Shown: in pieces, positions 11,463-58,660 of the stretch
Numbering within the stretch: the stretch's first letter is position 1
How the letters are laid out: each line of letters begins with the position of its first letter
From: Candidatus Nomurabacteria bacterium
Lineage (GTDB): Bacteria; Patescibacteriota; Patescibacteriia; HK-STAS-PATE-3
Assembly: GCA_023898465.1 (NCBI GenBank)
Contig: CP060223.1
Coordinates: forward strand, 32,001 to 96,000
Length of the DNA: 64,000 nucleotides
Reading direction: 5' to 3'
Notes under the pieces: model-generated
The model's database searches: none
What the model was told of the DNA's origin: nothing
What the model saw: the letters and a program-made list of their open reading frames with translations, nothing else
Program-made: the position numbers and the translations under genes

Positions 11463-12122
11463 CTATTTTAGGGCCTGAAGCACATCTTGCAAATCGAGCA
11501 ATTGGAGCTCCTCACCATATATTTTTCGCTGCACATCAGTGGCATATCCCGAGGCAGCAAAAGAGATAGCTCGAGGGATTTTTTGGGCAATGAGGCTCTG
11601 ATAAAGCTCATTCAGGTCTTGTCGCGTGACTGTTTTTCCCTTTGGAGCACAGTAGACCGGCACCTTTCCTTTATTTGTAGCGAGGAAGAAGTCAGGTGAG
11701 GGCGATGCAGAGGATTGTGGGCTGGGAAGTATTTGAAAACCCTGTTGTGTAAAGAATTTTTGTAGCTCCTTTATCTGTTGGACATCATTCACTTGTTGCC
11801 AAAAGTAAGTTTGCGAGACTTGCTCTTGCTTAACTTCCTTTTGTTGGAGCTCTTTCTCTACTTTATTTGTTCGCCAGGCAGGAGAGAAAAGTCCGAGAAT
11901 TCTTTTTATTTCTCCAATTTGGTAGACAGCCATGTAAAGTCCGATGAGACCACCTGCCATACCAAAGAGGAAAAGGGAAATAGCAATGTTACGGAAGGTG
12001 AAGCCGGCAAAGAGGAGGAGTACCAGCGCCACGAGGATACCAAAGGTCACTCCGGCGATGACGGTCTGGGTGGGGAGGTGGGCTTCTCTTTGCTCCATTC
12101 TTTTTTTGTCGTCCATATGCAT
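11463..12122 (-). CDS. membrane-anchored protein with a C-terminal restriction-endonuclease-like (Mrr_cat / PD-(D/E)xK) domain
   Basis: Two N-terminal TM helices, a coiled-coil Q/K/E stretch, then GFQILPS...DFFLATNKGKVPVYCAPKGKTVTRQDLNELYQSLIAQKIPRAISFAASGYATDVQRKIYGEELQLLDLQDV. This resembles the Mrr catalytic-core pattern (D...(E/Q)xK...T.s.ft..A...A....i.LiDg..L). Confidence 0.4.
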   Translation of the reverse strand: MHMDDKKRMEQREAHLPTQTVIAGVTFGILVALVLLLFAGFTFRNIAISLFLFGMAGGLIGLYMAVYQIGEIKRILGLFSPAWRTNKVEKELQQKEVKQEQVSQTYFWQQVNDVQQIKELQKFFTQQGFQILPSPQSSASPSPDFFLATNKGKVPVYCAPKGKTVTRQDLNELYQSLIAQKIPRAISFAASGYATDVQRKIYGEELQLLDLQDVLQALK

Positions 12123-12217
12123 AGTATACCCGACTCTAGACTACTTGACAGCCACTACAGAAATTCTCTCGAGCCTGTTACAATTTTATTACCTATAAAA
12201 AGAAAGGAGGCTGAATA

Positions 12218-12313
12218 ATGCTTAATCATCGATTAATGGACGACCCAGAAGAGGAAGGTATGGAAGAAGAGGGTATGGACGAAGACATGGGTGACATGGA
12301 CGAGAACGAATAG
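12218..12313 (+). CDS. 31-aa highly acidic Met/Glu/Asp-rich peptide
   Basis: Perfect SD aaaggagg 7 nt upstream of the ATG. Product is MLNHRLMDDPEEEGMEEEGMDEDMGDMDENE. A strong terminator follows. Confidence 0.4.
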   Translation: MLNHRLMDDPEEEGMEEEGMDEDMGDMDENE

Positions 12314-12338
12314 TCCATTCTCCTTCTGGAATCACAAC

Positions 12339-12400
12339 TGCCCCCACACTTCTCATAGTCTGAAAAGGCAAAGAGAGGCGTGGGGGCAGTTTTATTTTTC
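12339..12400 (+). terminator. rho-independent terminator (11-bp stem actgcccccac/gtgggggcagt, then T-run)
   Basis: The hairpin arms are actgcccccac and gtgggggcagt, followed by tttattttt. Confidence 0.5.
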
Positions 12401-12403
12401 CGA

Positions 12404-15497: not shown

Positions 15498-16487
15498 ATG
15501 AATATAATACTAGATTCGAATGTGCTGAAGGATAATTATTATCTCAATACACCGAGATTTCAAGCCCTGTTTAGCTATCTAAAAAAAACAAAATCAGAGT
15601 GTTTCATTCCTGAAATAGTAATTTTAGAAACGATAAAAAATTATAAAAGAGATACTGAAGAATACAACAGTATTGTTGATTCCCTAAAGAAGACTAATAG
15701 AGTTTTAGGTCTTAATGGTCCGAACCTTGAAATTAATATGAGCGATATTGTAAATAAGTATGAGCGAAGTATTTATAAAATAATAAAAAAAGTTGGAATA
15801 AAACTAATTCCGACTAAAGACTTGTCAATTTCAATTGATTCAGTTATTTCTCGATCGTTAAATGATATCCCGCCATTTTATAGATCAGGTAGATCAAGTG
15901 ATGTAGGATTTCGAGACTATATAGTTTGGGAGACTGTAAAATTTGTTAATAAAGACTTCGAAGGTAATCTGTGCTTTATATCGAACGATAAAAAAGCATT
16001 CGGACAAAGTTGTGAGTTATTTAGTAGATTAAAAAATGAATCCAACGTTCACTTTTATAACCTATTGGATGAGTTTTTAAATGAATATGCAGAAAAAATT
16101 AATTTTATTAGTGAAGAATACTTGGAGGACTACTTTCGTGAAGTTTTAGAAGATGAAATCCCTAATGTGGTGACTCTTAGCGAGCTACTAGCGACGAAAC
16201 CTGAGAATGAATATATAGATCCTTCTGACATAACTGACTATGAGTTTGATGAAATATCTATTTTGGATTTTTACGTTTATAATGCGACAACAAAATACTA
16301 TTACGTTTTCGTAAGGACAGACTTAATAGTAAGAGCTTATTATCTAAATAGATTAATGCTAGCGGCCGGACTTGATGATGAAGTATCTTCCGATTATTCT
16401 TTTTTAAGGTTCAAGAAATCCTTTTTACTAAGAATTGATAGAAGAACTAAAAGACCAGATCGTTTTCAAAATCATACTAGCAATTAA
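15498..16487 (+). CDS. PIN-like domain protein, 329 aa, in an AT-rich island
   Basis: N-terminus MNIILDSNVL...FIPEIVILET fits a PIN-type acidic core. The remainder is unrecognised. Composition is strongly AT-rich and K/N/I/Y-rich relative to its neighbours. Confidence 0.5.
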   Translation: MNIILDSNVLKDNYYLNTPRFQALFSYLKKTKSECFIPEIVILETIKNYKRDTEEYNSIVDSLKKTNRVLGLNGPNLEINMSDIVNKYERSIYKIIKKVGIKLIPTKDLSISIDSVISRSLNDIPPFYRSGRSSDVGFRDYIVWETVKFVNKDFEGNLCFISNDKKAFGQSCELFSRLKNESNVHFYNLLDEFLNEYAEKINFISEEYLEDYFREVLEDEIPNVVTLSELLATKPENEYIDPSDITDYEFDEISILDFYVYNATTKYYYVFVRTDLIVRAYYLNRLMLAAGLDDEVSSDYSFLRFKKSFLLRIDRRTKRPDRFQNHTSN

Positions 16488-16744: not shown

Positions 16745-16820
16745 GGTGGCTATAGCACAGTGGTTAGTGCACCGGGTTGTGGTCCCGGTGACATGGGTTC
16801 GAATCCCATTAGCCACCCCA
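16745..16820 (+). tRNA. tRNA-His (anticodon GUG) with encoded G-1 and CCA
   Basis: G-GUGGCUA-UA-GCAC-AGUGGUUA-GUGC-A-CCGGG-UUGUGGU-CCCGG-UGAC-AUGGG-UUCGAAU-CCCAU-UAGCCAC-C-CCA. Confidence 0.85.
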
Positions 16821-16845
16821 GTGTTGTGCAGGTGATGCGAAGACT

Positions 16846-17799
16846 TTATTCGTCTTCGTCTTTTTCATCCCTCCGCCGGCCATGAAAGGCTTTGTACACT
16901 TCACGTAGCTGCGCATTAGTAACGTGGGTGTATATTTGCGTGGTCGTAATAGAGGAGTGGCCGAGCAATTCCTGCACAGAGCGAATATCAGCACCATTCA
17001 TTAGCAGGTCAGTAGCAAAGCTGTGCCGCAGGGTATGCGGTGTAATCTTTTTCGTAATCCCGGCAATCGCGGCGTAGCGCTGCACCATCCGTTGGATAGA
17101 GCGGGGCGTAAGTGGACTGACTTCCTCGCCTTGTATCTCATCACTTTTTCCAGCAGCTCGATCATGTCGGACAAACAGCGCATCGTTGCCGTCGCGCCGC
17201 ATCTGCAGGTAGTGTCGGATCGCCTGCTTCGCTTGTTCAGAAATAAATACCAGTCGGACTTTGCCGCCTTTACCCTTGACCGAGAATTCATCCTTTTCCA
17301 GGTTGAGACTGTTGCGCTGCAGTTTCGCTAACTCGGAAATACGTAATCCCGTTGAGAAGAGTGTTTCGAGAATTGCTCGGTCGCGTTGCTTCACGATGTC
17401 GCTGCTTGGACTTTTATATGGAGCTTGCAAGAGTTGCTCCAAATCCTCTGAATCAAGGAAGTTGACAGAGCGCTGCGACTGTTTCATTAGCTCAATTTTT
17501 TCTGGAGCTAGTGAAGCAATATCGTGTCGCGATAGATATTTCAAAAATGAACGCAGGGCAATGAGGTGGTAGTTTTGCGTTGAGGCTTTAAGAGTTTCAC
17601 TATCTTTACCGAGCAGGCGATTCAACTTCAAACGAAAAGAGCGCACATTCGCCTCGGTAATATCCTTAGGAGTTTTTACTCCGCTCAGCTCAAAAAAGCG
17701 CGTGAGATAAAAATCATAATTGCGGACAGTGAGTTGACTCCGTCCACGCTCGATTTCGAGATACTCAAGAAATTCAGTTTTTAGCTTTTGCAGATCCAC
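16846..17799 (-). CDS. tyrosine site-specific recombinase, XerC/XerD family
   Basis: 317 aa with an N-terminal SAM-like domain (LEYLEIERGRSQLTVRNY) and a C-terminal catalytic domain (HTLRHSFATDLLMNGADIRSVQELLGHSSITTTQIYTHV). Confidence 0.85.
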   Translation of the reverse strand: MDLQKLKTEFLEYLEIERGRSQLTVRNYDFYLTRFFELSGVKTPKDITEANVRSFRLKLNRLLGKDSETLKASTQNYHLIALRSFLKYLSRHDIASLAPEKIELMKQSQRSVNFLDSEDLEQLLQAPYKSPSSDIVKQRDRAILETLFSTGLRISELAKLQRNSLNLEKDEFSVKGKGGKVRLVFISEQAKQAIRHYLQMRRDGNDALFVRHDRAAGKSDEIQGEEVSPLTPRSIQRMVQRYAAIAGITKKITPHTLRHSFATDLLMNGADIRSVQELLGHSSITTTQIYTHVTNAQLREVYKAFHGRRRDEKDEDE

Positions 17800-23862: not shown

Positions 23863-23902
23863 CACACCAAGGCTGGGATGCCTTGGCTAGTTGTTATTAC
23901 CT

Positions 23903-23930
23903 TGAAATTCAGGCCATTTTTTGCTATACT
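23903..23930 (+). promoter_or_regulatory. promoter TTGAAA-16-TATACT
   Basis: ttgaaattcaggccattttttgctatact lies just upstream of the 23940 ATG. Confidence 0.45.
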
Positions 23931-23939
23931 GCACCTACC

Positions 23940-26900
23940 ATGCGATTTCATTTAGCTTCACGCATCCTCATCGGAGCGCTTCTCGTGCTTACTGGAGCGC
24001 TATTTTCGCATACCGTGTTTGCTGCATATGGTGATGTGACGAGTTTTACCAGCAAAGTGTATGCAGGAGATGGCGGACAAGCAGCTAATGCATGGTTAGA
24101 TTTTCCGGAAGATATTAATTTTGATGCTGATGGCAACCTTTACGTTGCTGATACAGAGAATTTTGTTATTCGAAAAATAGACACGAACGGCGTGATCAGC
24201 ACCTACGCCGGATCTGGCCATTATGGTTTTTACAATGCGCCTGGGAATGCTGCTCAATTTGCTTCGCCAAAAGGACTTGCCATTGATAGCTCAGGGAATA
24301 TCTACGTGGCGGACACGGATAACAACATGATTCGCAAGATTGATCGTTATCGTGGCATCTCCACTGTGTTATCAGACAATTTGAACGCTCCCGAAGGTAT
24401 CACAGTATATGGTAGCTATCTCTACATTGCCGATACTGGGAATAACGCAGTAAAAAAACTCAATCTTGGTAACGGACGAGTTGATATTCTTAGTTCTGAT
24501 GTTTCTCATCCACGTAAGTTAGTAGTAAATACTGATGGGAGCTTAGTCTATGTCACTGACTCGGGAAATAATCGAGTAGTTTCAGTGAATACCAGCACCG
24601 GATTAACCTCATTGATTGCTGGAAGCTCAGAAGGGTATCGAGAGGGTGTGGGAAGTGCGGCAAAGTTTTCTAATCTCGCAGGAATTGCCTTTGACGGCAC
24701 CTATATATATGTGGGCGATGGATCAGGGCATGATAATCGCATTCGCAAAATCCACATTGGCACGAGACAGACAAGCTTGGTGGCTGATGATCCTCGTTTG
24801 CAAGTATTTAGCACTCCTTTTGGCATCCGGATTCGAAACGGGAAAATCTACGGCGCCAGCACCGGAAATAGCACCATCCAATCCTTTACTGCTTCAAACG
24901 GCGAACACTATGCGCGCATCGCCGGAATTGATCGCTTTGGTTATCGTAACGGGTCAATCACTGAAGCGCTTTTTGGTCGACCAAATGATGTGGTTATGAA
25001 CGCGGCTCGGACAAAAATGTATGTAGCTGAGAATAATAAGATTCGTGAAATTAACCTCGAAACCAGTCAGGTTCGATTAGTAGCGGGTAACTCGATTGAT
25101 GATTACGTAGGCGAGGGACAAAGCGGATCCGCAGCTCGCTTCAGCACTATTACTGCCATGGCAATCAATAGTGATGGAGATACGCTCTATGTGGTTGATC
25201 ACTGGAATAATCGCATTCGCGCAGTCGACGTTGCCACGGGCACTACGTCTTTAATTGCTGGAGGAGGAGAGTACAATACGAGTGGCTCAGGCAATGGTTA
25301 TGCAGAGGGAAGTGGAGAAAGTGCTCGTTTTGATAATCCTTTTGGTATTGCTATTTCGCCTGACGATACCACCTTATATATCACTGATGTAGCAAATCGT
25401 CGTATTCGTAAAGTGGTTATTTCGACTGGCGCCACCTCTCTTGTTGCTGGCTCAGGTGCAAATACTTCAAGTGATGGCTCAGGTGCTGCCGCGTCATTTA
25501 TGTATCCGGCTGGCATTACTATCGATACCGCAGGTGAAAATCTCTATGTAGCAGATCGCGATGCGCATACTTTGCGTAAGATTCGCTTGTCCGATGCTAT
25601 GGTCACCACGATCGTTGGTACGGCCGGTCGACAAGGTTATCGTGATGGCATTGGTGCAAATGCTGTCCTTTCTTATCCGCTGTATGTGAAGTGGGGCAGT
25701 GATAATCGCCTTTATTTCTCCGAAGCAGGATCGCTTCGACTTCGCTTAGTAGAAGTGAGTGACATGTTAACTAAATTGGTAGCTGGTAGCGGAAATCGTG
25801 GCTATCACGATAGCACACGGACTGATGCAAAATTCAATAATATCGCTGGATTTGCTGTTGATATTCCTTCACATACGCTTTTTGCTGCTGATAATCGTAA
25901 TGATTTAATTCGACGTATTAGTATTGCCGGTTCGCCGCCTTACTCTGATCCACAACCAGTTGTACAAGGTGTGCGACCAAGTCCGATAAAAGATCAAACA
26001 GATGCGTCAGCCGTAGCCTATCTCGATGTTTTGGGCGCGAACTTCCTGCATGGCGCCGAAACAAAGTTTGGTGATTTTCGCACTACTACCTATGTAAAGA
26101 GTGATTCGCAGCTTACCGTAGTTATCCCGATCGGTTTGATGGAGCCGGGACACTACGATGTCTCAGTGACAAATCTTGATGGCCAGGTTGATATCCTTAC
26201 CAATGGCTTTGGTCTCTCTGATGCGAATGGAAATGTGCCGGAGCGCTTCTTCCCCATTTTGGAGCAAGGTGGCTTCTATGCCTATGCGCCAAACTTCCCA
26301 GGAGGAGTAAATCTGAGTTCCGGCGATGTGAATAATGACGGTCGTGATGAAATAATTACCGCCCCGGCATCTCTCGGTGGACCACATGTTCGTTACTTTA
26401 CCAAAGATGGCTCTGTGGTCGGTCAGCTCTTTGCCTATGCGCCGAGTTATCGCGGGGGAGTGAGTGTTGCCTCTTGCGACATTGATGGTGATGGTAAGGA
26501 CGACATCGTGACGGGTACGGATGGAGCGAAGGCGCCGCATGTACGTATCTTGCGAGCCGACGGTTCATTAATTAACCAATTCTTTGCCTACCCGCAGGCT
26601 TTCCGGATCGGTGTGACAGTAGCCTGTGGTGATGTGACTGGTGACGGTAATCCGGAAATTGTAGTGAGTCCGCAAGCACGCGGTGGTCCACACGTCCGCG
26701 TCTTTACTCCAAATGGCCAATTAGTTTCTCAATTCTTTGCCTACCCGGCACATTTTCGCTTAGGTCTCGACTTAGCTCTCGGCGACACTGACGGGGACGG
26801 TACAAAAGAAATTATTGTCGCACCGTTGACCAATGGCGGTCCACATGTTCGCCGTTTTAATGCGCAGGGTCAACTCCTCGGTCAATTCTTTGCCTACGGT

Positions 26901-27185
26901 GCAAATCTGAGAACTGGAATCACTATTGAAGCTGGCGATACCGATGGTGATGGTCGGGATGAAATTGTGACTGGCACTGAGAATGGCGCAGCGCCTCACA
27001 TTCGTATCTTTGATGGTAATGGATCTGTTGAAGGACAGTTCTATGGATTTGCTTCGCGCCTCCGCAATGGTGTACACATTGGGGTAGGTGATTACGACGG
27101 TGATGGTGTTGCCGATATTGCCGCAAGCTTGGCGCGTGGTCTTTCCACAGTGCATGTCTACGATAGCAACGGCAACGATTTGTAA
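23940..27185 (+). CDS. secreted NHL-repeat beta-propeller plus FG-GAP/VCBS-repeat beta-propeller protein (about 1080 aa)
   Basis: Signal peptide MRFHLASRILIGALLVLTGALFSHTVFA. Repeated NHL-type units of the form G.LYVAD..N..IRKI. Seven C-terminal repeats of GD.DGDG..EI......GGPHVR.F plus FAY match the FG-GAP/integrin-alpha pattern. Confidence 0.8.
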   Translation: MRFHLASRILIGALLVLTGALFSHTVFAAYGDVTSFTSKVYAGDGGQAANAWLDFPEDINFDADGNLYVADTENFVIRKIDTNGVISTYAGSGHYGFYNAPGNAAQFASPKGLAIDSSGNIYVADTDNNMIRKIDRYRGISTVLSDNLNAPEGITVYGSYLYIADTGNNAVKKLNLGNGRVDILSSDVSHPRKLVVNTDGSLVYVTDSGNNRVVSVNTSTGLTSLIAGSSEGYREGVGSAAKFSNLAGIAFDGTYIYVGDGSGHDNRIRKIHIGTRQTSLVADDPRLQVFSTPFGIRIRNGKIYGASTGNSTIQSFTASNGEHYARIAGIDRFGYRNGSITEALFGRPNDVVMNAARTKMYVAENNKIREINLETSQVRLVAGNSIDDYVGEGQSGSAARFSTITAMAINSDGDTLYVVDHWNNRIRAVDVATGTTSLIAGGGEYNTSGSGNGYAEGSGESARFDNPFGIAISPDDTTLYITDVANRRIRKVVISTGATSLVAGSGANTSSDGSGAAASFMYPAGITIDTAGENLYVADRDAHTLRKIRLSDAMVTTIVGTAGRQGYRDGIGANAVLSYPLYVKWGSDNRLYFSEAGSLRLRLVEVSDMLTKLVAGSGNRGYHDSTRTDAKFNNIAGFAVDIPSHTLFAADNRNDLIRRISIAGSPPYSDPQPVVQGVRPSPIKDQTDASAVAYLDVLGANFLHGAETKFGDFRTTTYVKSDSQLTVVIPIGLMEPGHYDVSVTNLDGQVDILTNGFGLSDANGNVPERFFPILEQGGFYAYAPNFPGGVNLSSGDVNNDGRDEIITAPASLGGPHVRYFTKDGSVVGQLFAYAPSYRGGVSVASCDIDGDGKDDIVTGTDGAKAPHVRILRADGSLINQFFAYPQAFRIGVTVACGDVTGDGNPEIVVSPQARGGPHVRVFTPNGQLVSQFFAYPAHFRLGLDLALGDTDGDGTKEIIVAPLTNGGPHVRRFNAQGQLLGQFFAYGANLRTGITIEAGDTDGDGRDEIVTGTENGAAPHIRIFDGNGSVEGQFYGFASRLRNGVHIGVGDYDGDGVADIAASLARGLSTVHVYDSNGNDL

Positions 27186-27331: not shown

Positions 27332-30300
27332 GTGGAACGATTGAAACAAAGAAAAGTCAGAATAGGGGAAAAACGCCAATTTAGAAAAACAAGGGGGAAA
27401 ACTCTTGGGAGTGGTGGCGTATTTTTGCGTCGTCGAGCAAAGAAAAAAACCCTAGGTTTTCGACAGTTTATTACACGTTCTGTTCGCCTAAGCCCTCGTC
27501 CAGCGCTTATTGGCGCTTTTGTGGCGCTCGCAGCCCTGGGTGGCATTTGGTATTGGTATGCCCGTTCATCTTTTGCTGTATCGGAAATCTACACATTTAG
27601 CAGCCAATCTGAATGGGAATCAGGTGAGTATTGGCTTCACCAACTCGATACGAAAACGTCAGCTGGTGATATTTCTATAGCTAGTGGAAGTGTTGGGTCT
27701 TGGGATGCTGGTACTCCGGGATATCCAGCAAACGAGCGGGGAAATCCTACCATCGTTCCAGAGGGCACGAATTATGGTGCCGATTTAGTGACTGATGGAT
27801 ATTACGTATACATGATCGTGGGAGGTCGGCAGCCAGGCTTCTTCCGTTACAACCCAGACACTAACACCTGGAAGTCATTAGCCGATGCGCCAACTTCTTT
27901 CTACTATGGAAGTGCGCTGACTTACTACGATGGAAAGATATACGCCATCAATGGACAAGAGGGTGATCCAAGCGCTGATTATTCCGCCGTGCTTTTCAGT
28001 TACGATATTGCTACAGATCTTTGGACACGCTTGGCAGATGCGCCATCAAACTGGGGGCTTGGGTCAGATATCATCAGTGGTCGCAATGGTAAGCTCTACG
28101 CGGTTAAAGGACAAAGCACCGACTTTTTCTGGTCATATAACATTTCCAACGACACTTGGAGTGATACCCTGCCGAGTATTCCGGCTCCCTATCAAATCTA
28201 TACTACCAATAGCCACACCTTAGAATTTTCTGATGTGTCCTACGGAGGGCCCGATCCAGTAAATTGTGAGGCTGGTTGTATTTATGCTTTTCGTGGGAAC
28301 AATAATCGGCAATTTTTACGATTTGATATCCAGTTGAATCAATGGGTAACTGGATTTGCCGATATTCCTTCAGCAATACGCGGAATACATTATGGAAGCT
28401 CGATGGCCTTTGATGATGTGAATGGTATGATGTACGCCTTTACCGGAGGAAACGATGATGAATTTGTAAAATATGATATTGCAAATGAAACCTGGGATGC
28501 CGACACCTTGGATACGCCGGACGCACCTCGCGCAGTATATTACGGCGGGGCGCTTGTGTATTTACAAGGCTACGTGTATGGAACTCTAGGAAGTAACCTG
28601 AGTGAGTTTGTTCGTTACGATGTCACTGCAGGTGAATGGAATTCAATTGTAAGTCCAGCCGCCTCCAGTACTAATGTTAATAATCCAGAAGATGAACTCA
28701 TGGCCTATGTGCCAAACGGTGCGGATTGTGCTGATGCCGATGGTTGTCTTTTCTTAGCACGTGGATCAAATAGTAACACTTTTTGGCGCTATGATATTGG
28801 AGCAAAAACCTGGAATTCACTTACGAACATCACTGCCAGCGTCTATTATGGCGGCTCATTATGCTACGACGGTAACAACAATATTTTTATTGCTCGAGGC
28901 GCAAATACTACTTCTGTCTATAATTACAGTATTAGCGGTAATAGCTTTTCTTCACTAACCTCACCAGGCGCGATTGGAAATGGTGGGGCGATCACATGTT
29001 TAGGCGATAATAACTTTTATCTTTTGCGGGGAAATAACCAGCCGAGTTTTTATCACTACAATGGTTCATGGACGACAGAAACAAATATCCCGGTTGCTCA
29101 GGCAAACCTCGGTGCAGCGGCAACGAATGATGGAACTTATATTTACGTGATGGCCGGTAACTTACGCGGGAGCTTTTTCCGTTTTGAGCCGGGCGTCGGT
29201 TGGACTGAGTTACCTGGATTGCCTACCTCATCCTACTATACCGGAACACTGGAATACGATGGTGTGGATAGTATTTATGCAATTGCCGGACGCTATGAAA
29301 AAGACTTTTGGCGCTACGATATTACTGATCAGACTTGGAATCGTATCACTGATTTGCCAGGCCGTTTTGTAAACTCCCATGCCGCTGCTCATGATGATGC
29401 GAATGATATTCTCTATTTACTCCGAGGTTTCGGCACATCATCTATCTATCGCTTCAATACAGAAACAGATGCGTATATCCCGAGTGCAAATTGGGTTTCA
29501 CCAATTATCGACCTCACCTATGTTTCATCGTTTACGAGTTTTGGTGACTCAGCAACTACACCAGGCTCAACTTCTTTTACCTACGAGTCTCGTACTTCCG
29601 ACGATAAAGTAAATTGGTCAGCTTGGCAGACGATTACCGGAGGCACAAGCATTCAATCTCCTACCAATCGGTATATTCAGATCAAGATAACTTTTAACTC
29701 TGACGACACCAATACTCCAACGCTCTCCAGCTTCAGCATCACCTATGAAAAAGATTCAGTTGATCCGACAAACCCGACAATCACCGGGTATTCCAACAGT
29801 GGCAAAACCGCAACCCTAAATTCTGGATCTTCCTATTACCATACCAATCCTTACTTTGAATTCTCGGGTGCTAGTGATGCCGAGTCTGGTGTAGTCGGCT
29901 ACTATGTTGCCTGGACGACAAACGCGACGCTTGATCCAAGTGCGGATGAAGACTATTTCCAGACAAGCGAGTCCTTTGAAGTAAATACCAGTTTACAAAC
30001 GAGCGCGCCTGGTCCGAATTATTATCTCCGCATCGCAACAAAAGACGGGGCGGGTAATGTCTCAACGCCGCAAACTGCTTTTACCTATGTATACTCCGGT
30101 ATCTCACCGGCTTCAGCAACAACTTGGACAACCCAAGGTGACTTTGAGACAAGCGGAACAAGTGGCACAAATGTGAATACTGCGGCTAATAGTGGCGTTG
30201 ATCTTACCTTAAGCTCCATTACTGATGGCGTATGGACAAACGAAGCGCCAACTCCTAATAACGTTAGTCATGGTGCTAGCTTAGCCTATGACGGAAACGA

Positions 30301-33300
30301 TACGCTGTATTTTGTTCGTGGCACTAACTCACAAGAAATCTACGCGTATTCTATTTCTCAAAAAACCTACACCCAGCTCACGAACTATGGAGTCAATGTA
30401 TATAATGGATCGAGCATGGTGTACATCCCTAGTGGCGCTCAGTGTGCTGACGCTACCGGATGTTTATTTGTGACACGCGGTGCTACCTCGCAAACTTTTC
30501 AGCGTTACAATATTGCCGCGGCTACATGGTCACCTCTCACAGATGTACCCGGAGTAGTGAACTATGGGAGCTCGATAGCCTGGGGTCAGGGAAATTATCT
30601 CTATGTGACCCGTGGAAACAACTCAAGCGACCTTTATCGTTACTCTATTTCAGGTAATTCCTGGACTAGCCTTACTTCAACCGATCAAACGCTTTATTAT
30701 GGATCGACCCTTGTATATGTTGCGCCTGGTGATTATTGCGCTGATCCAACCGGATGTCTCTTTGCTACTCGGGGAAACTCAGATTCTGACTTGTATCAAT
30801 ATAATATAAGTGAAAATTCTTGGATTTATCTTACGAACGCGCCTATTTGGACGCAGTATGGCGCATCATCATACTACTTAAATGGCGCCCTGTATCTCGT
30901 GCGTGGTTATCTCGCAAATGATTTCTTGAAGTATGATATTGCCAACGACTCGTGGTCTTATCTCGATGAAATTCCCACCAACCACTATCAAGGTAGTACC
31001 AATGGTTTAACCTACGTTCCTTCCACAGATACCATGTATCTTCTGCGGGGCTATAGCGACTACTCCCTCTTTGCCTATGATGTGTCAGAGGATCGATGGA
31101 AAACGCCAAGCTTGCCGCAGGATATTTCAAACACTGGATTCTATTATGGCGCAGTAGCCTATGATAGTAATATTGATCAGTTATATGTTTCGCGCGGACA
31201 AAATTACACTGATTGGTGGGCTTTCCATATCGATACAGATGAATGGGAAGAGTTAGCTGATGTGCCAATGCGTGTCTACCAGGGTGCTGATGCTTCTGTG
31301 ATAGATCATGCCAGCAATCAATACGATGGTGTATATTTAATGAATGGCGCCGAAAGTCTCGGTGACAGTGTTGGCTATTTCTTCCGATATAGCCGCACGA
31401 CAGATCTGTGGACTCGTCTAGCTGATCTACCAGCTGAGCCAGGACTTGGTGCTGATCTTGTTTGGGATGGAGTTGATACCCTCTATTCGCCTCGTGGACA
31501 AAACACCACGACCTATTATAAGTATACGATTTCTACAAATACCTGGGACACAGTTGCTTCAACAGTTCCAGGGGCTGTATATCAAGGTGGTTGTCAGGTA
31601 AATGGCGGTGACGGATATATTTACTTAGTACGAGGACAAAACACTGCTAACATTTATCGCTTCAACATTTCGACCGAAACTTGGGACGCTGCTGGCACCC
31701 TAACCTCGGCCCCGGGCAATTTCTATTACGGCGATGCATGTGTCTTAGATGGGCAGGGTAATATCCTCATCCCACGTGGCAATAATACGACAGACATGTA
31801 TGTCTATAACATTGCTGGTGATAGTTGGTCCACTCGATCGGTATTGCAGTACTTTGAATACGGCGAATTGGCCATGACTTCAAATAACGTCATTCTCGGT
31901 TTCCGTGGTGAAAGCACCTCTGCTCTACAGCGCTATGTTGTTGCCACAAGCACGACTGGCTTTGAGGGGAATGGCTCATGGACATCCCAAATTCTTGACT
32001 TTGGCACCGGCGCTTATGGATATGCTGGACTGAGTTTAGATGTGACGAATCCGGCGAATACATCTGTAAGTTTGGAAACTCGTACGTGCTCGGATGCTGG
32101 ATGTGCTGGTGATGAAAACGATGCACATTGGAGTGATTGGGCAGAAGCGACCAGCACGCAAAGCCTTGGGAGCGTCACCTCATATACCGTTGCTTCCAGT
32201 GTTGCGCAGTATGGTCAGGTTCGCATTCGCTTTGTGTCTGATCAACTCTATACCTCCAGCGTACATAGCCTTAGTTGGTCTTCGTATAGTGATGGAACTG
32301 CACCAAATAATCCAAGCGCAGCTAGTGCGTATACTGATTCAGGCAAGACAACTGGAATCACGGACAATACTTGGACCGCTGAAACAACTCCGTATTTTGA
32401 ATGGAGCTCCACAGATAATACCGGCGGTATAGGCGTACAGGGCGCTTATGTCTACTTTGGTACAAACAGCGCTCTTGATCCTGTCGACGATGCCGATGAT
32501 GCAACGAACTTGGCCTATAAGAGTGGTACTAACTTCTATAACGCAAGTAGCGGAACAGTATCCTGGGATGCATCTACGCAGGCATCAGGATCCTTGAGCT
32601 CTGGTACTTACTACCTCAAAGTAAAAACACAGGACTTTAATACAAATGTAACCGCATCGGCTGCATCTATCTTTACTTACAAAATTGATACACAGGTTCC
32701 AACTGATCCAAGTGGTGTCTCAGCCGATCCAGCAGGATATACCTCGGTGAATAATTTTGACTTCTCTTGGACTGCTTCCTCCGACACACACTCAGGTGTG
32801 ACTCAATATTGTTGGAAGACCGGGGACGTAGGCTCAACTGATACTTGTATCGATTCTAGCATAACAACGGTGACTGACATTCTGGCATATCAAACTCGTG
32901 GCAATACCTTCTATGTTCGTGCCAAGGACAATGCGGGGAACTATTCTAACTACGCAACAACAACCTACTTCTATGCTGGTGATGCGCCGACGGAGCCGCT
33001 TACGCTTGTAGCCACTCCAACAACGGCTGAGAATACAAATGCCTTCTCATTCTCATGGAGCTTACCAAATACTTGTCTTGGCCGGACACCATGTCAGGCT
33101 GCTGACATTATTCGTTACTGTTATACGATTAACGAGTTGCCGAGTCAGGCAAACTGTGGCACAAATTTGGATGGCAACGCTACGCCAAGTCCGGACGGAG
33201 GATGGACCACGTCGACTCAGACATCTAATCGACTCTTGCCGGCCTTCTCAGCTGCGACTCAGCAGGATGTAAACACGCTCTACTTGGTAGCAGCTGATGC

Positions 33301-35854
33301 GATTAATAATATTGATTACGCGAATTACGCAGAAGTGAACTATACTTTCACTTCTACTGCCCCTGGACCTCCAGCCAGCTTGCAAGCAACTGACTCATCT
33401 GATCGGGCTAGCGAAGAATTTTCAACTACCTTAACTTGGAGCACGCCAAGCGATGTAGGGGACGGCGTTGAGTTATACAAAATTTATCGTTGTGACGAAA
33501 ATAGTACTGACTGTGATAATCCTTCATCAAGCGAAGATCCGCCAACCTATTACACCAATATCGCAAATACTACTACACGCGGTTATCTCGATGTTGAGCT
33601 AGATACGACCATTACTTATCGTTACTTTGTCCGGGCAATTGGGCCAGGTAATGCGCCGTCTGGTAATTCTGCTGTAGTAAGCATTAAGCCAGAGGGTAAG
33701 TTTGTGAATCCTCCACTCATTATTGGACAAGTATCAGCGGTGCCAAAGGTAACTACCGCTGAGATGGAGTGGTTGACCGCTGATGATGTAGGTACCGGTG
33801 GTGTTGTTATTCCTCACCCTGCTTCTTCCTTTGTTGAATATGGAGAAACTACCGCCTATGGTAACGAAACCGGTTCATCTGAATTGGTGAATGCGCACAG
33901 CGTGACTATAACCGGCTTAGCTGCTGATACCACCTATCATGCGCGGGCGTTCTGGATTGATGTCGATGGAAATCGTGGTGAGTCATCAGACTTTGAATTC
34001 ACTACCTTGGGCGCCCCATCTGCCCCAACAAACGTAACAGTAGATCCGACCACAAACACAGCAAATCGATTCACTTTCTCATGGGATGCACCAAGCGACG
34101 AAGGTATTGAGATTGGTGGGTATTTCTACTCAGTGAATACTTTGCCAAATGAAACGAATGCCAAGTTTACTGCGAACACCAGCGTGGGTCCGTTCCGAGC
34201 AGCTACTCAGCAGGATAAAAATACTTTCTACGTTGTGGCATCTGACACTTCAGCCAACGTCGATTTCGATAACTACGCTACGGTAGAATTTGAAGCACAT
34301 ACGACACCGCCTGAACCTCCGCTTAATCTCTTTATCGAAGACTCATCAAACCGTGATACTGAAAATTATCTCGCTACGCTGACCTGGTCCGAGCCGGGCA
34401 TTCCAACCAGTACAGGAGGTCTCGTTTCGAGTGAGGAAGTAGACGAGGAAATTTCTTACGAGGTGTATCGTAAAGCTGAAGGGGAGGATGACTTTAGTAA
34501 AATTGCTAGCGTCAGTTCAACCGCTTATCTTGATGCAGGACTAGAGGGTGGAAAAACATATGAGTATACTGTCACGGCAGCTGATTCGGCTGGTGCAACT
34601 TCAGACCAGGCTGAGGCGGTGGATGTCGTTCCAACTGGTCGCTACACAACACCGCCGGATATTACTCAGGGCCCAACAGTCACGGCTGATTCCTTTAGCG
34701 CCAAGGTAGAATGGGACACTGAACGTCCAACATCCTCATTCATAGAGTTTGGTCTCACAGCAGATTTAGGTGATGAGCAAGGCACCTCTGATCTTATTTC
34801 AGATCATAGTGTGATTGTTACTGGCTTGAAGCCTACTACAACATACTACTATCGCGTGAAGTCGATCGATATTGATGAAAACGTGGGCTATTCCAGCGTG
34901 GGTAGCTTTACTACCCTAGAGGCTCCGCGAGTGCTTGATGCAAAGATTAGTAACATACGTCTCTTTGACGCTACTATTACTTGGACCACCAACAAGGAAA
35001 CAACCACTGCCTTACAATATGGCACTACGACTAATTATGGATTTACAGTGAATGACACTAGTGGCTCATTTGCCTTCACACATACTTTGCAGCTACAAGG
35101 CTTGGCCGACGGCACGACATATAATGTCCAGTTAACCGGTACTGATCGTAGTGGAAATGCCGTCCAATCTGACAACTATGTATTTACTACGCTGACCTTC
35201 CCGCGCATCCTCAGCTTTGAAACTGAAAACAAAGCAGAGGGAGAGACTGAAGTTCGTTGGACTACCAATGTGCCAACTACTTCTCTCGTTGAGTACTATA
35301 ACGAAACAAGTCCGCCAAAAACACAAGGTAACACTGCCCTGGTGACTGATCACGCTATCCTCCTCTTTGGTCTCGAGGACGCTACAGTATACAACTATAC
35401 AATTCTCGGCGAAGATCAGTTTGGTAATAAGGTAGAGTCGGATGAAAATAATTTCCGTACCTTGGAAGATACCACGCCGCCAATTATTTCCAACGTAAAA
35501 GTAGAATCAAACACCATTGGTTCTGGTGAGGCTTCTCGTGTACAGATCATTGTTAGCTTCCGGACAAATGAACCCACCTCTACTCAAGTGCTCTATGGAC
35601 AGGGATCAGCAGGTACCACCCAAGAGACTGATGTAAATGGTGAGCTTGTGTATGATCATTTGATGGTTATTCAAGATCTTGATCCGGCGCGTACTTACGT
35701 CGTAAAAGCTGTGGCAGTTGATAAGGCCGGAAACGGTTCAGAGTCTGATGTGTACACTGTGTTGACGTCACGATCACGTGATTCCTTCCTCCAGCTTATC
35801 ATCGCCAACCTCGAAGACACCTTTGCCTGGCTCGGTAATTTGACTCCGGGTTAG
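27332..35854 (+). CDS. giant surface protein P1 (about 2.8k aa): N-terminal basic segment, TM anchor, many Kelch-like repeats, multiple Fn3/PAP-N-like domains, conserved C-terminal tail; start codon uncertain
   Basis: TM segment ALIGAFVALAALGGIWYWYA. Repeated Kelch-like units of the form Y..YD........W..L. Stalk domains of the FEW(S/D)...D.GG(I/S)G..GY.Y type, and PAP-N-like units (TSFIEFG...HSV.VTGL.P.TTYYYRVKS). The C-terminus ...SRSRDSFLQLIIANLEDTFAWLGNLTPG is related to the P2-P5 tails at protein level only. Confidence 0.8.
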   Translation: MERLKQRKVRIGEKRQFRKTRGKTLGSGGVFLRRRAKKKTLGFRQFITRSVRLSPRPALIGAFVALAALGGIWYWYARSSFAVSEIYTFSSQSEWESGEYWLHQLDTKTSAGDISIASGSVGSWDAGTPGYPANERGNPTIVPEGTNYGADLVTDGYYVYMIVGGRQPGFFRYNPDTNTWKSLADAPTSFYYGSALTYYDGKIYAINGQEGDPSADYSAVLFSYDIATDLWTRLADAPSNWGLGSDIISGRNGKLYAVKGQSTDFFWSYNISNDTWSDTLPSIPAPYQIYTTNSHTLEFSDVSYGGPDPVNCEAGCIYAFRGNNNRQFLRFDIQLNQWVTGFADIPSAIRGIHYGSSMAFDDVNGMMYAFTGGNDDEFVKYDIANETWDADTLDTPDAPRAVYYGGALVYLQGYVYGTLGSNLSEFVRYDVTAGEWNSIVSPAASSTNVNNPEDELMAYVPNGADCADADGCLFLARGSNSNTFWRYDIGAKTWNSLTNITASVYYGGSLCYDGNNNIFIARGANTTSVYNYSISGNSFSSLTSPGAIGNGGAITCLGDNNFYLLRGNNQPSFYHYNGSWTTETNIPVAQANLGAAATNDGTYIYVMAGNLRGSFFRFEPGVGWTELPGLPTSSYYTGTLEYDGVDSIYAIAGRYEKDFWRYDITDQTWNRITDLPGRFVNSHAAAHDDANDILYLLRGFGTSSIYRFNTETDAYIPSANWVSPIIDLTYVSSFTSFGDSATTPGSTSFTYESRTSDDKVNWSAWQTITGGTSIQSPTNRYIQIKITFNSDDTNTPTLSSFSITYEKDSVDPTNPTITGYSNSGKTATLNSGSSYYHTNPYFEFSGASDAESGVVGYYVAWTTNATLDPSADEDYFQTSESFEVNTSLQTSAPGPNYYLRIATKDGAGNVSTPQTAFTYVYSGISPASATTWTTQGDFETSGTSGTNVNTAANSGVDLTLSSITDGVWTNEAPTPNNVSHGASLAYDGNDTLYFVRGTNSQEIYAYSISQKTYTQLTNYGVNVYNGSSMVYIPSGAQCADATGCLFVTRGATSQTFQRYNIAAATWSPLTDVPGVVNYGSSIAWGQGNYLYVTRGNNSSDLYRYSISGNSWTSLTSTDQTLYYGSTLVYVAPGDYCADPTGCLFATRGNSDSDLYQYNISENSWIYLTNAPIWTQYGASSYYLNGALYLVRGYLANDFLKYDIANDSWSYLDEIPTNHYQGSTNGLTYVPSTDTMYLLRGYSDYSLFAYDVSEDRWKTPSLPQDISNTGFYYGAVAYDSNIDQLYVSRGQNYTDWWAFHIDTDEWEELADVPMRVYQGADASVIDHASNQYDGVYLMNGAESLGDSVGYFFRYSRTTDLWTRLADLPAEPGLGADLVWDGVDTLYSPRGQNTTTYYKYTISTNTWDTVASTVPGAVYQGGCQVNGGDGYIYLVRGQNTANIYRFNISTETWDAAGTLTSAPGNFYYGDACVLDGQGNILIPRGNNTTDMYVYNIAGDSWSTRSVLQYFEYGELAMTSNNVILGFRGESTSALQRYVVATSTTGFEGNGSWTSQILDFGTGAYGYAGLSLDVTNPANTSVSLETRTCSDAGCAGDENDAHWSDWAEATSTQSLGSVTSYTVASSVAQYGQVRIRFVSDQLYTSSVHSLSWSSYSDGTAPNNPSAASAYTDSGKTTGITDNTWTAETTPYFEWSSTDNTGGIGVQGAYVYFGTNSALDPVDDADDATNLAYKSGTNFYNASSGTVSWDASTQASGSLSSGTYYLKVKTQDFNTNVTASAASIFTYKIDTQVPTDPSGVSADPAGYTSVNNFDFSWTASSDTHSGVTQYCWKTGDVGSTDTCIDSSITTVTDILAYQTRGNTFYVRAKDNAGNYSNYATTTYFYAGDAPTEPLTLVATPTTAENTNAFSFSWSLPNTCLGRTPCQAADIIRYCYTINELPSQANCGTNLDGNATPSPDGGWTTSTQTSNRLLPAFSAATQQDVNTLYLVAADAINNIDYANYAEVNYTFTSTAPGPPASLQATDSSDRASEEFSTTLTWSTPSDVGDGVELYKIYRCDENSTDCDNPSSSEDPPTYYTNIANTTTRGYLDVELDTTITYRYFVRAIGPGNAPSGNSAVVSIKPEGKFVNPPLIIGQVSAVPKVTTAEMEWLTADDVGTGGVVIPHPASSFVEYGETTAYGNETGSSELVNAHSVTITGLAADTTYHARAFWIDVDGNRGESSDFEFTTLGAPSAPTNVTVDPTTNTANRFTFSWDAPSDEGIEIGGYFYSVNTLPNETNAKFTANTSVGPFRAATQQDKNTFYVVASDTSANVDFDNYATVEFEAHTTPPEPPLNLFIEDSSNRDTENYLATLTWSEPGIPTSTGGLVSSEEVDEEISYEVYRKAEGEDDFSKIASVSSTAYLDAGLEGGKTYEYTVTAADSAGATSDQAEAVDVVPTGRYTTPPDITQGPTVTADSFSAKVEWDTERPTSSFIEFGLTADLGDEQGTSDLISDHSVIVTGLKPTTTYYYRVKSIDIDENVGYSSVGSFTTLEAPRVLDAKISNIRLFDATITWTTNKETTTALQYGTTTNYGFTVNDTSGSFAFTHTLQLQGLADGTTYNVQLTGTDRSGNAVQSDNYVFTTLTFPRILSFETENKAEGETEVRWTTNVPTTSLVEYYNETSPPKTQGNTALVTDHAILLFGLEDATVYNYTILGEDQFGNKVESDENNFRTLEDTTPPIISNVKVESNTIGSGEASRVQIIVSFRTNEPTSTQVLYGQGSAGTTQETDVNGELVYDHLMVIQDLDPARTYVVKAVAVDKAGNGSESDVYTVLTSRSRDSFLQLIIANLEDTFAWLGNLTPG

Positions 35855-37282
35855 CGAGATAAGATAGGGTAAAAATCCTTTTTGGGTTTGAAAAAACTCA
35901 GAGTGTTTTGTTGTTGACGAAATGATGAAAATATATCAAAATAAAACGGTAGTTTAACTTTTCTTTACTGAAAGAAAAAGGGGGATTTGGCTTGAAGATT
36001 AGCCAAGGAAAGAAAAAACAGGACTGGAAGGCTAGAAAAAAGAGAAAGTCAGGAAGATTCAGCCTTTTCAGTAATTTTTTTCAGAAAAATCGACGTCGTC
36101 AGACTAAACTGGAGCAACCCCACAGCTTAAAGCCTGGGGCTGTTTTATTGCAGCTTTTTAGACAGACGCGACGTTACCGGGCTCAACAGCTTGTCTCTAT
36201 TAGTCTGGCAATTGTTTTGCTCTTGGCTTTTGGTTTTCAAATGTTTGTTGTAGCGGCGCCACCTGAAACTGCTTTTACGACGGTAAGCTCCGATGCTGAA
36301 TGGAATATGGGCACGCTTGAAGATGTCACTGTGAATAGTGGCAGCATTGAAATTTCTGGAGACGGGGGAGCTGGCTGGTTGAGTGGATGGCAAAATAGGC
36401 AGCCGGTCACAATTACCAATACCGGTTCAGCGCAGACAAACTATCAAGTAAGAGTTGATGTTACCTATGATGCCAAAATGCAGGCGGATTTTGATGATTT
36501 ACGTTTTGCAAAAGCTGATGGCACTGAGCTGGACTTTTGGCTGCAATCTAAAGTTGATTCTACCTCAGCCGTTGTTTGGGTGGAGGTGGATTCTTTGGCT
36601 GGATCGGGCGATACGGTGATCTACATGTATTACAATAATTCTGGCGCTTCGAGTACATCGGACGGAGCGGCGACTTTTCCTCTCTTTGATGATTTCAATG
36701 ATGCAAGTATAGACACGGGTAAATGGGTAGAAGTTGATCCCAGCTCAAAAATTGATGAATCAGCCGGATCGCTCCGTTTCCTTTACGGGTCTGGTAGTGG
36801 AGCATGGAATGCAAGTGTGTATGGCGTCACTTCTTTTACGCGGGCGGATTGGAGTTTTGAGTGGGATCAAACTTGGATTAGCGATTATAATCCATATGAC
36901 GCCTTCATGTTTGGCTGGAAAGATGATGGCGGAGCGGTAAGTTACACAAATCTCGTGTATGGCTACTACAATAGTGGGTCGGGTTTTTGTACAACGAACT
37001 GTACAGGGAATGTGTATGAAGATGGGAATAGTCGGGGAAATGCTGGAGTATGGGACAAAGATGTAACGTATAATCTGCGGGTTCGCATGCGAAGTGCTGG
37101 CGGAGCTTACTATGAAAAGAGTACAAACAATGGGGGATCATGGACAACCGATTATACAAGCACCTATTCAACTGAGGCTTCTCTTCATCCAGCCTGGATG
37201 CATTACGCAGGTGATTATTTGATTGATAATGTGCGGGTACGTAAATGGATGGCAAGCGAGCCAAGTCTTGTCTTTGGCACCG

Positions 37283-39380: not shown

Positions 39381-40311
39381 AGGGAGAACGTCTTCTACCT
39401 TGTCGCTATTGATGAAGGAACAATGTGAACTACGACAACTATGCTGCAGTCGCTTTCACTGCCACGACCCCCGCTCCTGCCATCCCCACCGGCCTCATCA
39501 TTACCGATGCCTCGAACCGAGAAACTGAAGACTACTCTATTGCCTTGAAGTGGAAAGCAGTGACCACTGAACAAGCCGGTAGCCTGGAAGATGACGCGGT
39601 GACCTACGAGATTCTCCGTTCCACTGATGGAGACAGCTTCTCCACCGTGGCCAACATTACCTCGACTGGCTACCTGGACGTCGATCTCGACAATACGACG
39701 GAGTATTACTACCAAGTGAAAGCCAAAGACTCCGCCGGCGCTGCTTCAGCTCCTTCGACCACCGTCTCAGATATCCCTGAGGGGAGATATACCACTCCAC
39801 CGGAGATTACCAAAGCCCCCCACGTTACTCCTTCCAGCTTCTCAGCCAAGGTAGAGTGGAGTACTGGACGGCCAACTACCTCCTTTGTTCAATTTGGCAC
39901 TAACCCCGCCTCATTAACAGAAGAGCAGGGTACTTCAAACCTTATCGCTGACCACGAGGTAACCATTGAGGGTTTGCAGCCTGAAACTACGTATTCATAT
40001 AGAGTAAAAAGTGTTGATGTGGATGGAAACATTTCACATTCAAGTGTTGCTACATTTACCACCCAGGCTGCTCCACGTGTTTCAAATGTAGGCATCAGCG
40101 ACGTACGTTTATTTGATGCTCTCATTAGCTGGGAAACAAATAAAGCGACCACAACTTCACTTGAGTATGGCACCACCACGAACTATGGTACAACGGTGAG
40201 CGATGCAACAGGATCAACTACCACATCTCATTTATATAAGTTAGAGAATTTGCAAGATGACACGCTCTACCATCTTCGTTTCCGTGGCGTTGATGCAGAA
40301 GGGACGCAAGT

Positions 40312-58314: not shown

Positions 58315-58333
58315 TTTTTCCAAAAACGAATAA

Positions 58334-58368
58334 ACGAAAACGGACGCATGTAATTGCTTCCGTTTTCG
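58334..58368. terminator. bidirectional rho-independent terminator (10-bp stem cgaaaacgga/tccgttttcg)
   Basis: cgaaaacggacgcatgtaattgcttccgttttcg, with flanking A-run and T-run. Confidence 0.6.
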
Positions 58369-58379
58369 TATCTATCAGG

Positions 58380-58490
58380 TTAGGCGTTCTCGCCACCAGC
58401 CTCACCCATATCAGCGTCACCAGCGTTTTCTTCTGTGGTTTCGCCACCTTCCATTGGAGTCTGGTTCTCTTCTCCGTCGAATTTGAACAT
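58380..58490 (-). CDS. 36-aa highly acidic Gly/Glu/Asp-rich peptide
   Basis: Perfect SD aaaggaggtgattgc before the ATG on the minus strand. Product is MFKFDGEENQTPMEGGETTEENAGDADMGEAGGENA. Terminates into the bidirectional terminator. Confidence 0.4.
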   Translation of the reverse strand: MFKFDGEENQTPMEGGETTEENAGDADMGEAGGENA

Positions 58491-58660
58491 GCAATCACCT
58501 CCTTTCAATTGATGTGATTTCACGTAGGGTCTAGTGTACGTGTCTGAGAACGTATTGTCTAGACTCTGTCAACCCCATACCACATTGGGTATAGGGTTGT
58601 ATCGCGCACCGATTCTGGTGCGAGGTCAACCCTTCGCGAGTGAACAAAAAAGACTTTCTG

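Follow-up and report, generated by a model that had tools for sequence, protein, structure and literature searches.

In the genome of this Candidatus Nomurabacteria bacterium, a very short ORF (ORF1) whose product would be extremely acidic lies beside a gene remotely related to Mrr-type nucleases, and a second small acidic ORF (ORF2) is found elsewhere in the window, as the whole stretch of 64,000 nucleotides analysed here is called. The question raised by this locus is what such mini-ORFs are: whether the first one encodes an inhibitor of the nuclease-like protein next to it, as the initial annotation had proposed, or whether both belong to another kind of element, in which the peptide, the RNA or both would be the object of selection. 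The features considered are collected in Table 1.

Table 1. Features of the two mini-ORF units and of the gene divergent from ORF1, in window coordinates
Feature	Position	Strand	Description
ORF1	12218-12313	+	31 aa; sequence MLNHRLMDDPEEEGMEEEGMDEDMGDMDENE
Candidate extended -10 promoter of ORF1	12176..12184	+	TGTTACAAT; predicted by reading the sequence
Shine-Dalgarno of ORF1	12202..12210	+	GAAAGGAGG; AGGAGG core 7 nt before ATG
15-nt tandem repeat in ORF1	12248..12285	+	2.5 copies; GAAGAAGAAGGTATG = EEEGM; Tandem Repeats Finder
Intrinsic terminator of ORF1	12336..12401	+	long GC-rich hairpin, then U tract UUUUAUUUUU
Divergent neighbour of ORF1	11463..12122	-	219 aa; hydrophobic helical N-terminal region, degenerate Mrr_cat-like C-terminal domain
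ORF2	58380-58490	-	36 aa; sequence MFKFDGEENQTPMEGGETTEENAGDADMGEAGGENA; K3N and D25G variants in related lineages
Promoter-like site of ORF2	58533..58561	-	TAGACA, 17 nt spacer, TACACT
Extended Shine-Dalgarno of ORF2	58494..58506	-	GAAAGGAGGTGAT; AGGAGG 7 nt before ATG
Intrinsic terminator of ORF2	58321..58369	-	hairpin + U-rich tail
Full conserved ORF2 unit	58331..58578	-	about 98% identical in related lineages L015 and L016

Both mini-ORFs were confirmed by translation at the positions and lengths first proposed for them. The ORF1 peptide contains 15 acidic residues (6 D + 9 E, a fraction of 0.48) rather than the 17 initially counted, together with six Met, and all six ATGs are in frame. 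Its acidic core is the 15-nt repeat itself, a low-complexity sequence whose period is a multiple of three. ORF2, which had been described as lying after an ABC permease gene, actually follows a 2-hydroxyacid dehydrogenase gene and converges with the permease gene, which is of the MacB/FtsX type; the gene downstream of ORF1, coding for 277 aa, is convergent with it as well. Both peptides consist of Asp and Glu to 31-48%, contain Gly and Met, are of low complexity and have no hydrophobic segment. The predicted tryptic products are LMDDPEEEGMEEEGMDEDMGDMDENE only for ORF1 and FDGEENQ...GENA for ORF2.

Each of the mini-ORFs is part of an autonomous unit of about 200 nt composed of a promoter-like site, a Shine-Dalgarno (SD) sequence of 9-13 nt and a terminator. 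The SD is perfect and ideally spaced, as had been reported, with AGGAGG exactly 7 nt before the ATG in both cases, and the GAAAGGAGGTGAT of ORF2 is complementary over 13 nt to the canonical 16S 3′ end. The strong terminators attributed to both units proved to be real by folding: the ORF1 hairpin at 12336-12391 reached a dG of -42.2 kcal/mol (92 nt folded) with a z of -7.1, the ORF2 hairpin at 58369-58334 a dG of about -20 kcal/mol with a z of -3.5, and a U tract follows each of them. Both had been missed by a simple terminator scan because their apical regions exceed its loop limit of 3-8 nt; likewise, the candidate extended -10 of ORF1 was not reported by the consensus promoter scan since no -35 hexamer is placed at 17 nt.

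The two units are unrelated in sequence, in agreement with the initial description, considering that BLASTP gave no significant similarity between the peptides (E=0.09) and that the DNA of the two loci could not be aligned. A motif common to both peptides is DMG[DE], placed shortly before a C-terminal EN[EA]. The upstream sequences TCTAGAC and TTGACAG were considered as signs of common regulation and discarded, because two regions of 90 nt would share one 7-mer by chance and no enrichment of TCTAGAC was seen in the window. The search for further copies of either unit in the fetched loci by nhmmer and blastn returned none.

The combination of features found in these units is exceptional in the window and well above what chance would give. 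The GAAAGGAGG sequence occurs three times against 0.54 expected, with two occurrences 7 nt before the mini-ORF ATGs and the third just before the start of the gene at 22813. A perfect AGGAGG followed by ATG was found in 3 of the 2896 small ORFs of both strands; one of these is internal to a PilT-like gene, and the only intergenic ones are ORF1 and ORF2. Among long genes, the perfect SD core was present in 4 of 33, even when the best candidate start was chosen. Moreover, C is the last base in 14 of the 17 twofold Y-ending codons of the two mini-ORFs, compared with a fraction of 0.40 in the genes of the window (P=4e-4) and of 0.20-0.28 in the immediate neighbours of ORF2, and 7 of their 10 Gly codons are GGT. 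The highest C fractions, 0.67-0.73, were those of the perfect-SD genes starting at 21461 and 22813, and since perfect SD sequences and C-ending codons coincide in these other genes, both features appear to mark high expression. The folding of the 5′ UTR together with the ORF revealed no unusual structure relative to shuffled controls (z -1.1, -0.2, 0.0), a result that is compatible with an open mRNA and speaks against a structured non-coding RNA. The initial annotation had regarded both ORFs as real and well-expressed genes: their reality is upheld, most strongly for ORF2 owing to its conservation in three lineages, while translation and its high level are predicted from SD strength and codon preference.

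The idea of a DNA-mimic or inhibitor (immunity) peptide, made from ORF1 and directed at an adjacent membrane-anchored Mrr-like nuclease, was suggested by the arrangement of the locus, in which the genes are adjacent and divergent and are separated, as correctly stated, by 95 nt from ORF1 to the first ATG of the neighbour, by the extreme negative charge of the ORF1 peptide and by the remote homology of the neighbour to Mrr_cat. However, the Pfam match to Mrr_cat (PF04471) stayed below the gathering threshold of 21 bits, with a score of 18.9 (E=0.0016), and the searches of PDB sequences with the Mrr-like domain returned chance matches only. In the AlphaFold single-sequence model of the 219-aa protein, residues 18-76 were helical and confident, which is consistent with a membrane anchor, and the C-terminal part had a pLDDT of about 40. 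The alignment to E. coli Mrr revealed that the Asp of GGIDG was kept and that Q-A-K was replaced by Y-C-A in the window and by N-C-A in the ortholog from the L011 genome. In E. coli Mrr, we take Q-A-K, an (E/Q)xK motif, and the GGIDG Asp to be the catalytic residues, and the replacement of (E/Q)xK in both the neighbour and its ortholog makes a working PD-(D/E)xK active site, and consequently nuclease activity, doubtful.

The ortholog also bears on the supposed partnership. A word-index search with the 219-aa protein recovered no homolog besides itself, and the ortholog was found through the neighbourhoods of the DEAD-box helicase gene in L011 and L012, the nearest genomes to carry it, whose helicase is 72% identical to that of the window. 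It occupies the same place in the gene order with full-length homology (E=1e-24), and the L011 copy carries a precomputed Mrr_cat match. In both genomes, its divergent neighbour codes for a 346-aa secreted protein and the acidic mini-ORF is absent. The possibility that ORF1 is what is left of this 346-aa gene was rejected, as its region is not alignable with the corresponding one of L011. Furthermore, the two divergent genes of the window have separate promoter-like sites, ORF1 has its own terminator and no operon is formed; ORF2, a unit of the same type, is located between the dehydrogenase and ABC permease genes, with no nuclease; and neither peptide had a match in PADLOC, Pfam or NCBIfam at E up to 1-10. 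The DNA mimics known to us are folded and have at least 50 aa. Given the degenerate motif, the ortholog without an acidic partner and the nuclease-free ORF2 locus, it is extremely unlikely that ORF1 is an inhibitor or immunity factor of this protein. ORF1 and ORF2 are not regarded as partners of the Mrr-like gene, a functional link with it is not supported, and the adjacency of a "nuclease" gene is a misleading clue here.

Both mini-ORFs are apparently absent from the GenBank annotation, since the genes flanking ORF1 bear the consecutive locus tags H6760_00245 and H6760_00250 and the protein-collection sources of both peptides were Logan only, with none from NCBI. In independent Logan assemblies, both peptides had been called as genes. 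The phmmer search of ORF2 against 1.84 billion representatives, as well as a homology query with the concatenated peptides, matched only the ORF2 variant P0123, and the viral-contig scans for the mini-ORFs gave no match. Among GTDB genomes examined through the gene order around the 2-hydroxyacid dehydrogenase, the best match was 47% identical and had no mini-ORF nearby, and a search of 92.6 kb in five more distant relatives gave no acidic mini-ORF.

The comparison of ORF2 was based on the window and on two related lineages, L015 (SRR32105342) and L016 (SRR17818317), which share the same two neighbour genes. Between the window and L015, the flanking genes presented a pS of 0.71-0.89, corresponding to saturated dS, and between the window and L016 the dehydrogenase gene presented a pS of 0.386 and a dS of 0.54. 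In ORF2, by contrast with these flanks, all pairs had a pS of 0 over 21.3 sites and a dS of 0, with a pN of 0.012-0.023: at the pS of the flanks, about 0.8 and 0.39, ORF2 should have accumulated about 17 and 8 synonymous differences, and none was observed. The only coding changes, few in all, were two nonsynonymous ones (K3N and D25G), which left the reading frame intact in the three lineages; none of the alternative frames or strands makes both changes synonymous, and no antisense frame with an ATG start was found. An excess of synonymous over nonsynonymous change was not seen, and the changes are too few to decide on this point.

The conservation extends to the whole unit and stops at its borders. 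Identity jumps to about 98% at GGTTGACA (58578) and falls just past the terminator (58331), and the sequence on either side is 70-80% identical or unalignable. Among the 191 transcribed nt there were 2 differences in L016 and 4 in L015; over 244 nt of the unit the differences were 2 and 11, with L015 as the outgroup, as it is for the flanking genes. The UTRs are as conserved as the ORF. Outside the ORF, the changes fell within the spacer of the promoter, near the transcription start, between the stop codon and the hairpin, and within the loop of the terminator. The promoter-like site is kept in both lineages save one spacer change in L015, and the terminator has an invariant stem and a variable loop. 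The lack of synonymous change beside saturated flanks indicates that selection acts on the nucleotides as well as on the peptide. As judged from this comparison, the ORF2 unit is shown to be under very strong purifying selection across three lineages and to be vertically inherited, and ORF2 is a genuine, unannotated and ultra-conserved mini-gene, known from these three lineages.

The history of the two units could also be read as recent, ORF1 being a young or non-functional product of repeat expansion beside a strong SD and terminator and the conservation of ORF2 reflecting, separately, a recent lateral spread. ORF1 is the only member of its 90% identity cluster and carries the tandem repeat described above, and it lies within a variable, orphan-rich stretch bounded by infB on one side and the DEAD-box helicase gene on the other; its singleton status, repeat and surroundings together mean that it may be young. 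Also, the scan of metagenome DNA with a degenerate MDEDMGDMD pattern recovered no ORF1 ortholog, yielding six GroEL tails and one TARA acidic protein. However, every expression hallmark of ORF1 is common to the constrained ORF2, which speaks against a non-functional ORF1, and the divergence of ORF2 in the branching order of its flanks, along with the conserved gene order, supports vertical descent under constraint against recent transfer. The recent reading was thus considered quite unlikely.

Conservation at the nucleotide level also raises the possibility that the units are small regulatory or dual-function RNAs, in which selection is on the RNA sequence and the ORF plays an incidental or secondary part; pairing with pyrimidine-rich targets or titration of ribosomes could be imagined, for example, for a purine-rich RNA with a 13-nt SD. 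The ORF2 unit has the attributes looked for in a small RNA gene, with a promoter-like site, a Rho-independent terminator and conservation that includes synonymous sites. Near-identity from about the -35 hexamer to the terminator next to flanks with saturated synonymous sites, the lack of synonymous change in ORF2, UTRs conserved like the ORF and the prediction of independent transcripts of about 200 nt ending in Rho-independent terminators would all be accounted for. Nevertheless, the Rfam search at E up to 5 gave nothing except generic hairpin matches, no significant structure was observed outside the terminator, and no extended complementarity was found elsewhere in the window. Base-pairing small RNAs usually keep a short seed, not 111 consecutive nucleotides, and the SD-ATG geometry, the in-frame ATGs and the C-ending codons at two unrelated loci would not be expected from a non-coding RNA. 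An RNA function with an incidental or secondary ORF is accordingly held to be possible, if on the unlikely side.

The explanation preferred here, given about an even chance of being correct, is that both are mini-genes most likely translated at high initiation into soluble, disordered and strongly acidic peptides. The promoter, the unusually long SD, the ORF of 31 or 36 codons and the strong terminator would produce a separate mRNA, on which the strong SD would drive a high rate of initiation of the short acidic ORF. The product would be a freely diffusing disordered polyanion able to bind basic partners electrostatically, with nucleoid, ribosomal or RNA-polymerase-type proteins, or possibly cations, as candidates. 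By their common expression hallmarks, it is plausible that ORF1 is an analogue of ORF2. Some observations do not sit easily with a coding function: zero synonymous against two nonsynonymous changes is atypical of purifying selection at the protein level, and a constraint at the RNA level would explain the data equally well; ORF1 is a low-complexity repeat in a single-member cluster, with no ortholog recovered by the metagenome pattern scan; and the searches reported above yielded no family or homolog for the peptides and no acidic mini-ORFs in the five relatives. In addition, to our knowledge, codon selection in bacteria of the candidate phyla radiation (CPR) is not expected to be strong enough to freeze synonymous sites.

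The position of the acidic residues within the peptides may be relevant to their translation. D/E/P-rich runs of the type involved in intrinsic ribosome destabilization (IRD) begin at residue 8 in ORF1 (DDPEEE) and at residue 5 in ORF2 (DGEE), inside the first 10-30 or so codons where such a run is looked for in an MgtL-type leader. In E. coli, such runs abort translation, an effect that is greatest close to the N-terminus, when the nascent chain is short, and when Mg2+ is low (10.1101/2021.02.02.429294). By our reading of the same study, bulky residues at the tunnel entrance counter this abortion. Following the E. coli IRD rules, acidic runs from residue 5-8 would make ribosomes likely to abort on both ORFs, to an extent that depends on Mg2+ and on how stable the ribosome is. 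This may be offset by the short bulky N-termini (MLNHRLM and MFKF) and by the maximal SD sites.

The same runs suggest that the ORFs could be MgtL-type (IRD) sensors, where abortion or completion of translation on the acidic run would report Mg2+, energy or ribosome status and the outcome for the ribosome would set either the efficiency of the terminator, and through it the antisense read-through into the convergent gene, or how stable the RNA is. The downstream gene is convergent in both units, only 10 nt separate the stop codon of ORF2 from the terminator stem at its base, and a joint constraint on nucleotides and peptide would be expected for such a sensor. However, neither unit holds a leader position, as no gene follows on the same strand, and no alternative antiterminator structure was evident; in ORF1, the stop codon is 22 nt from the hairpin, beyond the reach of a terminating ribosome, and IRD is known from E. 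coli, yeast and human systems, not from CPR bacteria. A sensor of this kind is very unlikely.

A reading in which both levels matter was also considered, the ORF2-type unit, and ORF1 by analogy, being an element specific to its CPR lineage with both the mRNA and the acidic peptide under selection. Such a unit would combine very high initiation with abortion-prone elongation and might sense Mg2+ or ribosome status, or its RNA might titrate ribosomes or pyrimidine-rich RNAs. Selection on both molecules would explain frozen synonymous sites beside saturated flanks, and the reading was kept as an unlikely one.

As acidic micro-proteins, the reading preferred above, the products of the two ORFs can be compared with several known systems. 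They resemble bacterial micro-proteins of up to 50 aa encoded by sORFs in having a stand-alone ORF, an SD, start and stop codons and their own terminator, and in having been missed by annotation. The characterised micro-proteins known to us are mostly hydrophobic, membrane-associated or basic, whereas the ORF1 and ORF2 peptides are hyper-acidic, with no hydrophobic segment and no family match. High negative charge is shared with Ocr, ArdA, DMP12, MsyB, SutA and SPO1 Gp44, acidic disordered or DNA-mimic proteins whose targets are basic nucleic-acid-binding proteins, and electrostatic competition with nucleic acid is plausible as a way of acting (PMC3643605, PMC8208478, 10.1101/423384, 10.1101/2025.02.25.640118). 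These proteins are, in contrast, several times longer and mostly folded, and the mini-ORFs have no sequence relation to them and no identified partner. Moreover, no link to a mobile element or phage of the Ocr/ArdA kind was found, as ORF2 is chromosomal with its gene order kept and the viral-contig scans were empty.

MgtL is likewise a very short ORF with a D/E/P-rich run near its N-terminus; it is placed, however, in the 5′ leader of the gene that it regulates, while the ORF1 and ORF2 units are closed by a strong terminator, beyond which comes a convergent gene. The dual-function RNAs SgrS/SgrT, RNAIII/hld and SR1/SR1P are similar in that each is an independent transcript of about 200 nt, contains a small ORF and is conserved at the nucleotide level, but in the mini-ORF units no target, seed, conserved structure or Rfam family was identified. 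Finally, the 9-mer MDEDMGDMD of ORF1 is also the extreme C-terminal GroEL tail (...GGMDEDMGDMDMM, directly before the stop codon) on six high-GC metagenome contigs. Both sequences are disordered, with many Gly, Met and acidic residues; the likeness is one of composition and motif only, as ORF1 is free-standing, shares no DNA homology beyond the motif and has no chaperonin gene nearby.

The genomes of CPR bacteria (Patescibacteria) are small and hold many genes of unknown function, and their content of small proteins and small RNAs is essentially uncharted. In this context, the ORF2 unit, about 98% identical and with no synonymous change, is conserved far above its protein-coding neighbours, and we know of no characterised bacterial counterpart of a hyper-acidic peptide of roughly 35 residues. 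The practical value is modest, since the element occurs only within a very narrow clade and its function is predicted. If the peptide is made, it would provide a simple test case for free polyanionic peptides in a minimal cell and also a test of how ribosomes deal with N-terminal acidic runs; if it is not made, the ORF2 unit would be a new and strongly constrained small RNA of CPR bacteria.

In the leader of ORF2, the 36-aa acidic mini-ORF, a predicted hairpin would pair CGUG with CAUG in the start-codon region and AAUCAC with GUGAUU in the 3′ half of the Shine-Dalgarno (SD) sequence; it did not vary among the three lineages and was statistically unremarkable (z about –1). Further upstream, a 19-nt block containing the palindrome TCGCGA was kept in the related lineages L015 and L016, while the remainder of the dehydrogenase-ORF2 spacer was variable and presented indels. 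This block may serve as an operator or as a processing site.

Features in the window and in the relative L011
Feature	Position	Strand	Remark
Pyrimidine-rich stretch UCCAUUCUCCUUCUGG	12314-12329	+	Immediately 3′ of ORF1 stop codon
PIN_12-domain gene	15498-16487		Just upstream of tRNA-His/recombinase pair
tRNA-His, then directly tyrosine recombinase gene	16746-17799		XerC-like recombinase on minus strand
NHL/FG-GAP protein gene	23883-27185		Upstream of giant-gene array
2840-aa ORF	27332-35854		Upstream of giant-gene array
Giant gene 1	35992-39528		DUF2341 and fn3 domains (Pfam scan)
Giant gene 2	40999-44268		Paralog in tandem array
Giant gene 3	46424-49597		Paralog in tandem array
Giant gene 4	51177-56318		Paralog in tandem array
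Predicted ORF2 5′ UTR hairpin	58486-58525	–	dG –10.8 kcal/mol
19-nt block TTTGTTCACTCGCGAAGGG	58630-58648	–	Soon after dehydrogenase stop codon
346-aa Asp/Thr-rich secreted protein gene	L011 5853-6893		Occupies ORF1-equivalent position

The pyrimidine-rich, anti-SD-like stretch following ORF1, the 31-aa acidic mini-ORF, can pair with codons 16-22 of this gene, which could be due to chance, since ORF1 is purine-rich. In L011, which carries the Mrr-like ortholog, the secreted protein gene had an SD context nearly identical to that of ORF1 (GAAAGGAGGTGAGATAATG), and its DNA was not alignable with ORF1. The Mrr-like gene itself, divergent from ORF1 on the minus strand, is probably leaderless: a candidate –10 site, TATACT (12128-12123, minus strand), was placed 6 nt upstream of its second ATG (12116), and a start there agrees with the 217-aa version of NCBI.

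On six high-GC metagenome contigs (L017-L019 and L021-L023), the very C-terminus of GroEL consists of the ORF1 9-mer MDEDMGDMD, one example ending in PGGMDEDMGDMDMM before the stop codon; compared with the usual GGM tail, this type represents an acidic variant.

Elsewhere in the window, four paralogous giant genes (products of 1057-1713 aa), one of which was covered by the Pfam scan, form a tandem array interspersed with smaller fn3 genes, and common peptide and DNA words repeat across it at a spacing of ~5 kb. Finally, relatives presented similar recombinase genes in the vicinity of their helicase gene, and therefore the XerC-like gene is probably a housekeeping Xer rather than part of an integrated element.
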